From NCBI GenBank assembly GCA_965197745.1, contig CBDANS010000005.1, forward strand, positions 445,562 to 509,561: a stretch of DNA of 64,000 bases. The letters are read 5' to 3'. This document shows positions 9,594 to 54,639 of the stretch, piece after piece. Under the pieces are notes generated by a model. That model did not search any database. It worked only from the letters and a program-made list of their open reading frames with translations, and was not told the origin of the DNA. The DNA comes from Opitutales bacterium. GTDB lineage: Bacteria > Verrucomicrobiota > Verrucomicrobiia > Opitutales > PNEW01. Within the stretch, counting starts at the first letter, position 1, and each line of letters begins with the position of its first letter. The translations under genes were made by a program, and so were the position numbers.

Positions 9594-9691
9594 TTAACAA
9601 TTAACGGCTGATCGTTAAAGCGATAGATCATCAGCGAGTGTCGGGAAGAGATAATTATGGAATGATTGGACCCCGTTTTTCGTACCAATTA

Positions 9692-10688
9692 TTAAGTGAG
9701 AGAGTTCCCGGGTATTAATGGTTTTAGGATTGATGTATATGAGAGATCTTGGCGAAGTGAGGGCGTAGCCCGAACGCGGCCAAGATCTGAAAGGAATGTG
9801 ACAAACTCTTGTGGGCTTTGAAAGCCTAAACGACTGTGGGGATGATCATGGTTATAGGTCTGGCGCCATTGTTCGATTACAACTTGTGCTTCAGCCACGC
9901 TGAGCAACACTTCACGGTTCAAACACTCATCGCGTAAGCGGTTGTGAAACGACTCGATGAAACCGTTTTGCCAGGGACTGCCCGGATCGATATATATCGC
10001 CTTGATCTTTTTGTCGGACAACGACTGCTGCACTTGATGAGCAATGAATGGCTTCGCATGTCGTCGCTTCGCTCCTCGGAACACTGCCGTTGTCACTACG
10101 GATATAGCTGGGAGCTCCCTCCTTTTCAATGGCCTCGCTAAGCACAGAGAGGACATCCGATGAGGGGAGTTCACGAGCGACCCGGATATCCAGACATTCA
10201 CGCGTATATGTCTTCGCTTCGCTTGAGTGTCGTCGCTTTCAGCTCCTCGGTACATCGATCAGAGTCATCATCTTTAATGGACCGCCATGGTCTGTGCGAT
10301 CATGGACAAAGTCCCAGGACCAAAGGTGATTGCGACCGGTTGCTTTAGTAGGCGACCCCGTAGAGACCCCTTGACGGTGTCTACGCTTTTTAGGTGGCTT
10401 TACCTGCAACCCTTCTGAACGTCGTACTGCCTGAACAAACTTCCTGTTTGTTGTCCAGCCTTCCTTTACGAGCAAGGCACGGATGCGCCGGTAACCGTAG
10501 CAGGGATGTTCCCAGGACAGGGTTATAATCCGCTCGGCCAACCGCTGAGCTTTCTTACTGGCCTGCTTGGGCTGGTAGCTGAAAGTTGACCAACTGAGGC
10601 TGAGGTAGGAACAAGCCCTTCGCAACGAGCACAGCCCTCTCTCAGCCGCATCTTTTACTACTCGCTTCTTCTGCTTGGGGCTCACCAC
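9692..10688 (-). pseudogene. IS3 OrfB DDE integrase, interrupted at 10210-10252 and 10050-10081
   Basis: WSWDF, LID|YTRECL, SDNGS|FI and PGSPWQNGFIESF all join into one frame if each insert is replaced by a single nucleotide. Confidence 0.85.
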
Positions 10689-10948
10689 TTTTTTGACAGC
10701 GTTTCCTCCATTACCTGATTCTTAAGCATTTGATCAGCGAGCATCTTCTTCAACTCGGTGTTTTCTTTTTCCAGCTCTTTAAATCGCTTCGCATCGGCTA
10801 GTTCCAAATTGCCATACTTTTTACCCCAGCGATAGAAGGTCTGTTCACTCACGTTGTTGCCTCGGCAGATTTCCTCTACCGTTTTTCCGGTATCGGCTTG
10901 CCGCAGTATTGCGATGATCTGTTCTGTTGTGTATCTTTTTCTTTTCAT
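10682..10948 (-). CDS. IS3 OrfA (HTH)
   Basis: MKRKRYTTEQII...VSEQTFYRW...LEKEN..LKKMLAD. Confidence 0.93.
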   Translation of the reverse strand: MKRKRYTTEQIIAILRQADTGKTVEEICRGNNVSEQTFYRWGKKYGNLELADAKRFKELEKENTELKKMLADQMLKNQVMEETLSKKW

Positions 10949-11274
10949 GAGGTTATCTGTTTATCCCGATAACCTCTCTCTGTTAATGATACCATTTTTG
11001 GGGGTCACTCCAGGAAAGAGGAGCGACAAACGGGGACTAATATGATGTTCCTTTATTTTTTTTTAAAAATTAAATGTCATTCAAAAAATTTAAGTATTCT
11101 GAACTGTATTATTATCAAAAACCTGTAAAAAAAATAAGGTTTAAATTTCATGCTGGTATTATATGTAAAAATAAGTATAAACTATGGTATATTTAGATAT
11201 TATTTTTATTTTTAATCCTACGATTAATAGTTGAATTAAACTTTATTAAACAGGTATAGGATAAAAAAAACCGT

Positions 11275-52975: not shown

Positions 52976-54293
52976 TGGTCGTGACCACGAAAACTGGTCC
53001 ACTTGAAAAGTTAGTCTGGGTAACCTAGAAAGGACTCAGACAATGAAAGGCAAAAGATACACAACTGAAGAGAAAATACGGATGCTGCGGCAGGCGGACA
53101 AAGGGAAAACGATCCTGGAAGCATGCCGCGAGAACAACATTAGCGAACAGACTTTCCACCGCTGGAAGCGTGAGTTTGGGATGATTGATGTCGACCAGGC
53201 CAAGCGGATGAAGGAACTCTTTGAAGGAGAACGCGCGGTTAAAACGGATGCTGGCGGACAAGCTGCTGGGGATAGAGATCCTGCAGGAGACCCTCGAAAA
53301 AAAACTGTAAGCCCTGGGCACAAGCGGCAAGTGGCAGAGAGACTTGTGGCTCGGGGCCAGTGTTCGATGCGAGCGGGGTGCCGGTACTTTCGGCTGCACC
53401 GTTCCACCTATGCGTATAAGGCGAAGCATCCGGATGCTTGGTTAATGAAACTGAAGGCGGCAGTAAGGCGGTTATCACGGCAATATGCCAGGTGGGGCTA
53501 TCCGAAGATCACGAAGCTGTTGAAAGACGAAGGCTGGGAGGTGGGTAAACGTCTCGTGCAAGGTCTACGACGCGAACTGGGCTTGGCGATCCCCCAACGC
53601 AAGCCAAGACGTCGGGGCAGGGGTGTTTCCACCGGGCTGCCGACCAAGGCCGAACATCCCGGCCATGTTTGGACCTGGGATTTTATCCACGATAAGACGG
53701 TCCGCGGTGGCAGTTTAAAAATGTTGACCGTGCTCGATGAGTACACCCGCGAGTGCCGGGTGATCCATGTTGATCGCCATATCAATGCGGAAACGGTGCG
53801 CGGTATCATGCAAAAACTGCTTGCCCGTCATGGGCCGCCACAATATATTCGCAGTGACAACGGTTCCGTTCCGAGGAGCGAAGCGACGACATGCGAAGCC
53901 ATTCATTGAAAAGGAATTGAGAGCCTGGCTAACTGCGATGAAAATCAAAACCCTCTATATCGAACCAGGAAGCCCTTGGCAGAACGGATACATCGAATCG
54001 TTGCATGCCCGTTTTCGCGAGGAGTGTTTAAACCGTGAACAGCTATGGACTTTGACCGAAGCCCGCGTGGTGATCGAGGACTGGCGCTGGCTTTACAATA
54101 ATGTCCGACCCCACCGCAGCCTCGGCAATATCACCCCACGGTGCTTCGCTGAAGACATTAATACCGAAGGCTTGGGCTCCATTCGGGCTACGCCCTCATT
54201 GCGCCCAAGCCTTGACTTCCTCTACCAACTTAACTTCAACATTAACCTCTCCAGACTAACTCTCTCGGTGGACCAGTTTACGTAACCCGATCA
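52976..54293 (+). mobile_element. IS3-family element 2, orfB interrupted by the 32-nt insert
   Basis: Inverted repeats TGGTCGTGACCACGAAAACTGGTCCAC / TGATCGGGTTACGTAAACTGGTCCAC; no flanking target duplication. Confidence 0.9.
53043..54285 (+). pseudogene. IS3 OrfA/OrfB transposase with an extra T near 53220 and an insert at 53869-53900
   Basis: OrfA HTH, WTWDF, VLDEYTREC, SDNGS|FI and PGSPWQNGYIES motifs. Confidence 0.85.
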
Positions 54294-54639
54294 GGGGTCT
54301 GGCACACCCCGTTTCCATTACACCCCAAGGTGTCATACCGAAGCTGATCCAATCCTATCCAAAGAATATTCGGTCTCATTTCGTAATGCCGCACATCAGC
54401 GCGTTTTAAGTGTTGGGTAAGAAGGGTTCAGGGTGGAAGATGTCGGGCTACGCCCTCGGTACAGGGTTCAGGGTTGTAAGAGGTTTTTTCCGTTAGGATA
54501 AATCCGAATTCCGATATCGGCAATCATTATAATCCGCAATTGACAGACTCCATTTGCCATATCACATCGAGGTTGGATAAAGTTGATTACGAGAAAACAT
54601 CCCCGCCAAATGTTCTCGAATAAATACGATCTGTGTGCT

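Follow-up and report, generated by a model that had tools for sequence, protein, structure and literature searches.

Putative miniature REP-like elements in conserved codons of IS3 transposase genes of an Opitutales bacterium

We analysed a stretch of 64,000 nucleotides (nt) from an Opitutales bacterium (assembly GCA_965197745.1, contig CBDANS010000005.1, positions 445,562 to 509,561; hereafter the window), which carries two insertion sequences (IS) of the IS3 family. A conserved glutamate codon in the transposase gene of the first of these, element 1, is split by a 43-nt insert. This block is probably a DNA-level insertion of a miniature element resembling repetitive extragenic palindromes (REPs) that broke this IS3 copy. 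Here we show that the insert belongs to a family with exact boundaries, that filled and empty target sites coexist among IS copies, that one target base is lost, that a single base pair of the insert covaries, that the wider superfamily is biased towards extragenic DNA, and that intact insert-free IS copies exist. The relevant features of the window are the following:

9663-11012, minus strand: element 1, IS3 family, subfamily E1a, ends TG...CA
10210-10252, minus strand: 43-nt insert at IS3 site 1 (L-I-D-E-Y-T-R-E) of element 1
10050-10081, minus strand: 32-nt insert, related to the 43-nt one, at IS3 site 2 (D-N-G-S-E-F) of element 1; net +31, frameshift
9968-9970, minus strand: empty site 4 of element 1, CAA codon of P-W-Q-N-G
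9926-9928, minus strand: empty site 3 of element 1, GAG codon of R-L-R-D-E-C-L
52976-54293, plus strand: element 2, IS3 family, subfamily E2a
53739-53744, plus strand: empty site 1 of element 2, GAG TAC, no insert
53869-53900, plus strand: site 2 of element 2, filled by the same 32-nt sequence as in element 1

At site 1, the minus strand of the window reads GAT G-TACCGAGGAGCTGAAAGCGACGACACTCAAGCGAAGCGAAGAC-A TAT ACG CGT GAA, that is, the middle A of the GAA codon is swapped for the insert, with a net gain of 42 nt and an in-frame TGA. The first-pass annotation of this DNA had given the insert the same coordinates, sequence, length, frame, net gain and stop codon, all of which agree with the window sequence. 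Its reading that the middle base of GAA is replaced is borne out by empty paralogues in this genome and in the related genome G002, and element 2 does have GAG TAC without an insert at 53739-53744, as had been noted. In both elements, the 32-nt insert interrupts the Glu codon of D-N-G-S-E-F after its first base. The site-1 insert adds a TGA to the transposase frame of element 1, and the 32-nt insert, 130 nt downstream, shifts that frame; with both lesions, element 1 would thus be non-autonomous.

The genome that contains the window (G000; 4.45 Mb, 92% complete by marker genes) was compared within a set of 41 related genomes. A census of its IS3 elements yielded 82 aligned copies of at least 700 nt. 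Three occupied sites had been listed in the first-pass annotation; this count did not hold, as there are four sites in IS3, in addition to several outside IS elements. The sites in IS3 are distributed in G000 as follows:

Site 1: filled in 32 copies; empty in 8 as GATGAATA and in 41 as GAG (E2 type); unaligned in 1
Site 2: filled in 73 copies; empty in 8 (GAG in 6, TAG in 1, GAATTC in 1); unaligned in 1
Site 3 (R-L-R-D-E-C, 36-nt variant): filled in 9 copies; empty in 70 (GAG in 69, GGA in 1); unaligned in 3
Site 4 (CAA of P-W-Q-N-G): filled in 7 copies, with a stop-free, in-frame short variant of 43 nt

Three of the four known occupied codons are GAA and one is CAA. At all four sites, the insert follows the first codon base and replaces the middle A, for net gains of 42, 31, 35 and 42 nt, respectively.

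A filled/empty pair in G002, a complete related genome in two contigs, delimits the mobile unit exactly (43 nt, T...C) and establishes that one A is lost. Two G002 copies detected by a protein search (L335 and L336) have GATGAATATACG at site 1, are empty at all four sites and contain an intact 346-aa (amino acid) frame; aligned with a filled copy over about 1347 columns, they show a single mismatch and a single gap, and the pair displays neither a target duplication nor a change in the flanks. Because these empty copies differ from about 38 filled ones by the insert and a single mismatch, the inserts look like DNA-level lesions in non-autonomous IS copies. The same two copies overturned a provisional conclusion that G002 has no insert-free E1-type copy: among the E1-type copies of this genome, at least one insert was present in 35 of 35 and then in 5 of 5 examined (40 of 154 candidates scored), and all 35 copies of the first set carry an identical 43-nt insert at site 1. 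Among the related IS3 copies of G002 and of G001, a genome in one contig, all combinations of filled and empty sites occur.

The same variant is found at the same site in deep IS3 lineages and across three genera, and the insert sequence is extremely conserved. Both observations would be expected if the inserts were old, vertically inherited parts of IS3 with a cis-regulatory role, such as keeping transposase levels low or yielding a truncated inhibitor, with the empty sites being later precise losses. We give this explanation a slim chance, given that the G002 copies differ, apart from one mismatch, by the insert alone, so that a loss would have to recreate the missing A; that filled and empty states form a mosaic among close relatives; and that the same module occurs in non-coding tRNA-linked units and intergenic repeats (see below), where there is no IS3 to regulate.

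Each IS3 site consistently holds its own insert variant, even among IS lineages that have diverged by 10-35%. This pairing of variant and site agrees better with inheritance, or with copying from one homologous IS copy to another, than with an element that transposes freely to a specific sequence. In subfamily E2b, four empty copies (GAG TTT) were compared with six of at least nine filled ones (G-insert-A TTC). These copies are 99.1-99.8% identical, the constant differences between filled and empty ones are confined to the two synonymous positions adjoining the site, and a 3-nt indel polymorphism is common to both groups. This pattern points to the copying of short tracts out of another filled lineage, or else to an immune allele being selected for, in either case on more than one background.

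A homing-type process, in which a nick or break at an empty site is repaired from a filled copy so that the IS is braked, either by a hyper-parasite or as host defence, would accommodate the site-adjacent differences in E2b and the variant-to-site pairing across diverged lineages, and also the fact that the empty sites are mostly GAG rather than GAA (69 of 70 at site 3 and 41 of 49 at site 1). We nevertheless regard it as unlikely: no nuclease was identified, GAAT empties that look susceptible are still present (eight at site 1, one at site 2; the flanks of one of these are identical to those of filled copies), and most of the counts are accounted for just as well if helpers amplified a single filled founder. 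Given the variant-site pairing, the identity of inserts across lineages and the E2b pattern, a homing-like process stays in play beside founder amplification.

The insert family shares the core CCGAGGA-hairpin-GACGACA, which is followed by a GCGAAGC mini-hairpin. A relaxed core pattern retrieves 123 copies from the 4.45-Mb genome, and the pattern CCGAGGARC-N2-9-GYGAYGACA retrieves 119, compared to 0 for the reversed pattern. With 150 of its 2844 first-look candidates scored, a covariance model made from 55 distinct sequences has at least 121 matches at E<=1, of which 118 lie inside IS3 copies and 3 adjoin tRNA genes. The recurrence of the insert in this genome is not due to chance. Besides G000, the exact pattern is present in four of the 41 genomes, with 18 copies in G001, 69 in G002, 5 in G035 and 77 in G040; the G040 copies are split between the forward (38) and reverse (39) strands, and no replichore pattern was seen among them by eye. 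In addition, 80 metagenome loci match a stricter pattern. The matches listed in a wider scan of contigs were mostly chance matches in G+C-rich phyla; of the 13 that were inspected together with their flanks, the flanking features of the family were present only in records of Opitutales, Puniceicoccaceae or Pelagicoccus. The proposal in the first-pass annotation that this is a family of structured inserts thus stands as far as the family is concerned (121 copies here, five of the 41 genomes, 80 metagenome loci), with weaker support for "structured". The small size of the inserts and the GAATTC context of one site are all that would suggest an assembly or library artefact (adapter or chimera), and we consider the chance of this negligible: the same inserts are present in several independent genome assemblies and in contigs of four public runs from three studies, and the metagenome loci display natural sequence variation and covariation.

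Beyond this family, a generalised pattern (TACCGAG, a G/C-closed hairpin, CGACA) has 86 matches in G000, compared to 5 for the reversed pattern. A typical copy reads TACCGAG-GGGC-GAA-GCCC-CGACA-TCTTCCA, and the stems vary yet stay complementary (GGGC/GCCC, GGAC/GTCC, GC/GC). The pattern TACCGAG-S-N2-12-S-CGACAYC occurs 68 times in G000, 90 in G001, 109 in G002, 22 in G015, 54 in G024 and 256 in G040, and 0-1 times in each of the remaining genomes of the 41, with a reversed control of 0 in those six and at most 2 elsewhere. Of the superfamily copies of G000 outside IS elements, 10 of 60 are within open reading frames (ORFs) of at least 150 aa, which cover 83% of the genome. This superfamily is REP-like, being repetitive, extragenic, palindromic and lineage-specific in some Opitutales genomes. 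The IS3 inserts are a branch of it that has tandem G-A stem pairs and a second mini-hairpin; with 118 of 121 copies within IS3 genes, this branch is the exception to the extragenic bias. One superfamily member is found in the window itself:

54441-54461, minus strand: intergenic TACCGAG-GGGC-GTA-GCCC-CGACA (TACCGAGGGCGTAGCCCGACA, then TCTTCCA), about 150 nt past the right end of element 2

G000 also contains dozens of composite repeats, ATTGCGAGGAGC-AAC-GCGACG...TACCGAGCGCAGCGACATCTTCCATTCCAGG, in which two superfamily hairpins are joined (for example, C6:123756 and C6:507658).

Outside IS3, G000 has the insert module behind two tRNA genes, tRNA-Asn (two tandem units) and tRNA-Gln, at a distance of 70-170 nt downstream. 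These tRNA-linked units comprise, in this order, a stem complementary to the 3' strand of the T stem, a small hairpin, TTCG-insert-ATCC, and the last nucleotides of the tRNA to CCA, the tRNA portion joined to the module being precisely its 3'-terminal 18 nt (position 59 to CCA). The small hairpin is GAAYC-loop-GRTTC, with C-G exchanged for T-A between tRNA-Asn and tRNA-Gln. Because the junction reads TTCG-insert-ATCC, the insert lies in a T-loop-like TTCG(A)ATCC sequence. The units at L001 733-905 (G000:C6) and L002 726-810 (G000:C5) contain an inverted T-arm copy before the repeat of about 18 nt. The tRNA-Asn unit is kept in G001 and G002; the tRNA-Gln unit has no counterpart at the matching tRNA-Gln of either genome, and no orthologous empty site is available for it, the downstream DNA not being alignable between genomes. 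In G035, 110-nt tRNA-linked units are arranged in tandem and no base is lost. Many metagenome loci display a tRNA, sometimes a terminator, and then a module-bearing unit, and the junctions of tRNA-linked modules shift by +/-1 nt between genomes. No interrupted whole tRNA was found: when the insert was deleted from 19 tRNA-linked metagenome loci, one, doubtful, tRNA resulted, and the reading of these loci as interrupted tRNAs was rejected.

Other occupied repeats include an intergenic repeat of G040, with the module at GGGGTC^(A)AACC (the caret marks the insertion point), and, in Pelagicoccus, a hairpin with the module in its loop and an empty twin alongside. In two G040 loci (L189 466-632 and L192), the module is oriented the other way round and abuts the reverse complement of a tRNA-Leu 3' end; these 140-nt tandem units also contain a CCCGCGCGGG hairpin, and their layout is common to many metagenome loci. 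In G000, family members were found in no gene other than those of IS3, only in IS copies, duplicates of tRNA ends and other repeats.

The 5' flanks of the filled sites are GATG, AGTG, TCCG, TTCG, TGGC and GGTC. Insertion at IS3 sites 1, 2 and 4, like that into the G000 tRNA units and the G040 repeat, has cost one A; no base is missing in G035. Sequence-specific targeting of GAAT had been suggested in the first-pass annotation, with flanks of G/AT as the rule to be tested. Three IS3 sites do read G^A-AT, but the fourth is C^A-AAAC, the G040 repeat GTC^A-AACC and the T-loop-like DNA TTCG^(A)ATCC. The flank rule is accordingly not borne out in that form; because the CAA, G040 and T-loop-like sites are occupied as well, it widens to S^A-A-W.

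In the first hairpin, positions 11 and 20 form a pair that is GC in 37, AU in 16 and GU in 2 of the 55 distinct sequences, and unpaired in none, although these modules were gathered with a pattern that left both positions free. In a shuffle control, 0 of 500 replicates reached the observed values, and controls with slid positions collapse; the A-U form is seen in three different contexts. The remaining pairs of this hairpin are invariant and hence uninformative on covariation, the loop varies from 2 to 6 nt, and the flanking CCGAGGA and GACGACA never vary. Many of the loops match GCGNAGC or GCGNNAGC, two DNA-specific mini-hairpins of extraordinary stability, and the second hairpin reads GCGAAGC, a type whose stability escapes standard thermodynamic models (PMC13037366). 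The covariation of stems for which the first-pass annotation had proposed a test is therefore seen for one pair of the first hairpin and, the others being invariant, not beyond it. When the insert region, the tRNA-linked units and 20 metagenome loci were scanned with Rfam 15, only tRNAs reached the family threshold; sub-threshold matches were to RtT (23.7 bits, threshold 45) and sR23 (15.3 bits), and a ribozyme or other known RNA was rejected on this result. A resemblance of CCGAGGA...GAC to the hammerhead core was discarded on the same result.

Matches to PF01797 (Y1_Tnp) are present in 22 of the 41 genomes, including all seven motif-rich ones, and none of the 19 genomes without PF01797 holds the motif in many copies. 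This co-occurrence is only suggestive because related genomes are not independent. The Y1 proteins, of about 330 aa, score best among the NCBIfam models with the REP-associated tyrosine transposase (RAYT; 44-70 bits, cut-off 80), the IS200 transposase scoring lower. We infer that a RAYT-like Y1 transposase is the best candidate for the mobiliser. The sole Y1/RAYT-like gene of G000 (C6:162763-163745, minus strand) is split into overlapping frames of 199 and 175 aa; its relative in G001 is intact, at 347 aa. Among four RAYT-like genes inspected in G001 and G002, one has the motif 1.1 kb away, and consistent linkage of Y1 genes and the motif was not found in the gene neighbourhoods of G000, G001 and G002. 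G040, which has 46 PF01797 matches, contains a multi-copy Y1 element of about 1.26 kb with inverted ends of about 30 nt and a RAYT-like protein of about 330 aa (L239-L241; C1, e.g. 1517000-1521500), and TACCGAGCGAAAGCGACA lies 55 nt behind the ORF in two of three copies inspected. This element looks like the TIRYT elements of PMC3733652.

The link of the module to tRNA 3' ends raises another explanation, namely, reverse transcription of a small RNA, with the cDNA being placed at its target by template switching or by target-primed synthesis. Such copies would account for the small target deletion, the junction with exactly the last 18 nt of the tRNA in the G000 units, the G-U intermediates in the covarying pair and the variation of junctions by +/-1 nt between genomes. 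This origin is highly improbable: the hairpins are of the DNA mini-hairpin type, poly-A or any other cDNA signature is absent, and a reverse transcriptase (PF00078 at E<=1e-5) was not found in five of the seven motif-rich genomes (G000, G001, G002, G024 and G035), which weakens it further.

When the inserts are removed and one A is restored at each, the IS3 frames become continuous: 318 aa of OrfB in element 1 (both inserts stripped) and E1a, 284 aa in E1b, and a stop-free 415 aa in element 2 (its single insert stripped) and E2. Frames of 298-310 aa result in copies from which three inserts are stripped, and of 32 G002 copies with the site-1 insert alone, 29 have 346 aa after repair and two more have 345 or 337 aa. 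The inserts are the sole lesions in many IS3 copies. Between E1a and E1b, both of which are filled at sites 1 and 2, the ratio of nonsynonymous to synonymous divergence (dN/dS) is 0.125, 0.125 and 0.169 in three gene segments, with dS of 0.57, 0.90 and 0.11. Taken alone, these observations would suggest that the inserts may be tolerated during expression.

Removal or skipping at the level of expression, whether as a very small intron or by translational bypass, would let insert-bearing IS3 copies still make transposase. In addition to the dozens of copies with no other lesion and the low dN/dS, it could draw on the conservation of the inserts, which far exceeds that of flanking synonymous sites, and on the position of the insert after the first codon base at all four sites. 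For a bypass, site 1 has AGC-TGA in the first hairpin and an in-frame AGC 21 nt later, and at site 2, CCG could re-pair at CCA, restoring the frame. This explanation is, however, quite unlikely. Plain removal leaves G+A, one base short, so that the frame shifts. RNA-library contigs (X18 records 13 and 14, X19 record 18) span both inserts, and no joint that removes 10210-10252 was found in the contigs of the two metatranscriptome runs that hold parts of element 1, rare forms and DNA carry-over being possible in these data. An X18 contig with 8 nt in place of 10043-10081 reads GAG TTT ATC, the empty allele of another IS variant, and was rejected as a splice product. There is no Rfam match to a ribozyme or intron. 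As to bypass, the net 42, 31 and 35 nt of sites 1-3 would each need a different correction, and site 3 lacks matching take-off and landing codons, its landing triplet being TCA; programmed bypass was rejected, as no take-off/landing rule fits all sites. Furthermore, in this genome the family is found only in dispensable DNA, never in another gene, and intact insert-free copies can act in trans. We found no evidence supporting an intron or a translational bypass.

The insert-free helpers in G000 are the four E2b copies, whose frames are 415 aa long in two copies and 354 aa in the other two; in G002, there are at least eight intact E2-type and two intact E1-type copies. As such copies exist, trans-mobilisation of the broken IS3 copies is possible, and E1 and E2 are somewhat similar in their terminal repeats. 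One G002 copy (L327, G002:C2:47151-48699) reads through the 32-nt insert, with a +2 indel about 50 nt downstream that restores the frame; the resulting frame has 309 aa, about 29 of them in a scrambled segment, and the copy has, in addition, an in-frame site-4 insert. In element 2, a frame with a start codon (53043-53909, plus strand) passes from OrfA to OrfB without the usual A-AAA-AAA slip because the frame change falls within the OrfA coiled-coil region.

Taken as a REP-like DNA insertion, the element would have the architecture 5'-TW-CCGAGGA-[short hairpin, variable loop]-GACGACA-linker-[GCGAAGC mini-hairpin]-tail-C-3'. Its targets would be S^A-A-W sequences in four conserved IS3 codons, in T-loop-like DNA of tRNA 3'-end duplicates and in other repeats, and an insertion would usually cost one A and create no target duplication. 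Filled copies could then have become the majority in two ways, singly or together: the few intact insert-free copies may have mobilised them in trans, or empty homologous copies may have been converted by filled ones over short tracts, in a homing-like manner. That the primary insertions took place on single-stranded DNA and were made by a RAYT-like Y1 (HUH) tyrosine transposase is a tentative step, possible but less than probable. We hold it doubtful that the modules are actively and site-specifically placed in S^A-A-W codons of IS3 and in T-loop DNA, be it by a RAYT-like enzyme or by a homing process.

Several observations weigh against the reading as a REP-like DNA insertion and against the enzyme proposed for it. 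No motif lies within 30 kb of the Y1 gene of G000 and none is linked to Y1 in this genome; the motif is absent from 15 relatives that contain Y1, although relatives are not independent samples. The loss of one base and the differing 5' flanks contrast with the seamless insertion of IS200/IS605 elements at a fixed tetranucleotide, and the occurrence of an own variant at each IS3 site is unlike a free transposon. Nearest-neighbour DNA folding predicts no stable structure (z of +1.57 for the 43-nt and +1.25 for the 32-nt insert relative to shuffles); with folding no better than that of shuffled sequences, "structured" rests on the one covarying pair and a known motif. No insert differences exist between IS subfamilies with flanking dS of 0.57-0.90, which would need very short conversion tracts or selection on the insert. 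Finally, E1a (about 10 near-identical copies) and E1b (about 16) are all filled in G000, and no intact E1-type copy was found in this genome, which is 92% complete.

Among known mobile elements, those of the IS200/IS605 group insert seamlessly 3' of a fixed tetra- or pentanucleotide, and their known functional ends are far larger than 32-43 nt. Like these elements and their miniature derivatives, the inserts lack target duplications and terminal inverted repeats and have small hairpins near both ends, so that a similar single-strand DNA chemistry is plausible; they differ in the variable 5' flanks, the lost base and a total length of only 32-43 nt. Nor are they miniature inverted-repeat transposable elements, given that their ends, T(A/T)CCGAG... 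and ...GCGAAGC(N)C, do not form inverted repeats and that none of the filled/empty pairs shows a duplication. Small dispersed repeats have reportedly been described by Elhai and are mentioned in PMC3116915. Mitochondrial byps are programmed translational bypass elements. The inserts resemble bypass elements in being inserts of 30-50 nt in coding sequence, with a stop-bearing hairpin after a possible take-off codon at site 1, but have no consistent take-off/landing pairing, would need three frame corrections, are common as modules in non-coding DNA and have intact insert-free counterparts. The T4 gene 60 bypass element has been considered as a mobile element (bioRxiv 10.1101/2022.08.31.505936).

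REPs and their combinations in REPINs (REP doublets forming hairpins), together with RAYT (Y1 HUH) transposases, are established (PMC3116915, PMC3333891), with REP mobility and the role of RAYT still treated as hypotheses (PMC3116915, PMC3733652). The family and superfamily described here resemble them in the short hairpins, invariant single-stranded flanks and variable compensating stems; in the tens to hundreds of dispersed, mostly extragenic copies that form lineage-specific families; and in the presence of RAYT-like Y1 genes in the carrier genomes. Unlike REPs, they have no GTAG tag, the 5' end being TACCGAG or TTCCGAG; the inserts are intragenic, and no RAYT gene flanked by the repeat was found in G000. 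Unlike REPINs, the IS3 inserts surveyed are single units rather than inverted doublets. Exact natural filled/empty sites with one target base lost set the inserts apart from the REPs in the relevant passages of PMC3116915. Di Nocera et al. 2013 described GTAG- and CGTC-tagged families, RPEs (Rickettsia palindromic elements) in Rickettsia, and Y1 genes flanked by terminal inverted repeats, TIRYT denoting those with long inverted repeats; intragenic REPs of the GTAG type were most numerous in Opitutus terrae, a Verrucomicrobium, and CGTC tags vary to TGTC and have short unpaired tails (PMC3733652). The complementary strand of our module starts with TGTCG(TC), which contains TGTC/CGTC. Stem and loop sizes differ, however: the CGTC families have stems of 8-9 bp with A-T in the first two positions and loops of 4-5 nt (PMC3733652). 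In our module, the stems are 2-5 bp, those of the IS3 branch contain tandem G-A, and there is an additional GCGAAGC mini-hairpin. Occupation of IS3 transposase codons and T-loop-like DNA also separates the inserts from the repeats in the passages of PMC3733652 that bear on them. The insert family appears to fit the REP kind but no described family: it lacks a GTAG tag, and its stems and loops, second mini-hairpin, targets and base loss set it apart. The literature searched contains no description of it; this does not extend to the supplementary lists of intragenic REPs and REPtrons (including those of Opitutus terrae) of PMC3733652, which may hold related repeats.

The filled and empty IS3 copies define the mobile unit to the base, together with the target S^A-A-W and the one-A footprint, and such a defined substrate and target can be used in biochemical tests of the RAYT-like proteins of this lineage. 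Annotation is affected as well because insert-bearing IS3 genes will be called as fragments. Most of the IS3 copies in three genomes are knocked out by the inserts, a case of one class of mobile DNA disabling another, which bears on how IS expansions are curbed in symbiont-type genomes. If the modules are indeed placed actively and site-specifically, a REP-type repeat would act as a hyper-parasite or as a host-side silencer of insertion sequences, and the filled/empty pairs would be a natural record of REP-type movement, including an unusual replacement of one base.

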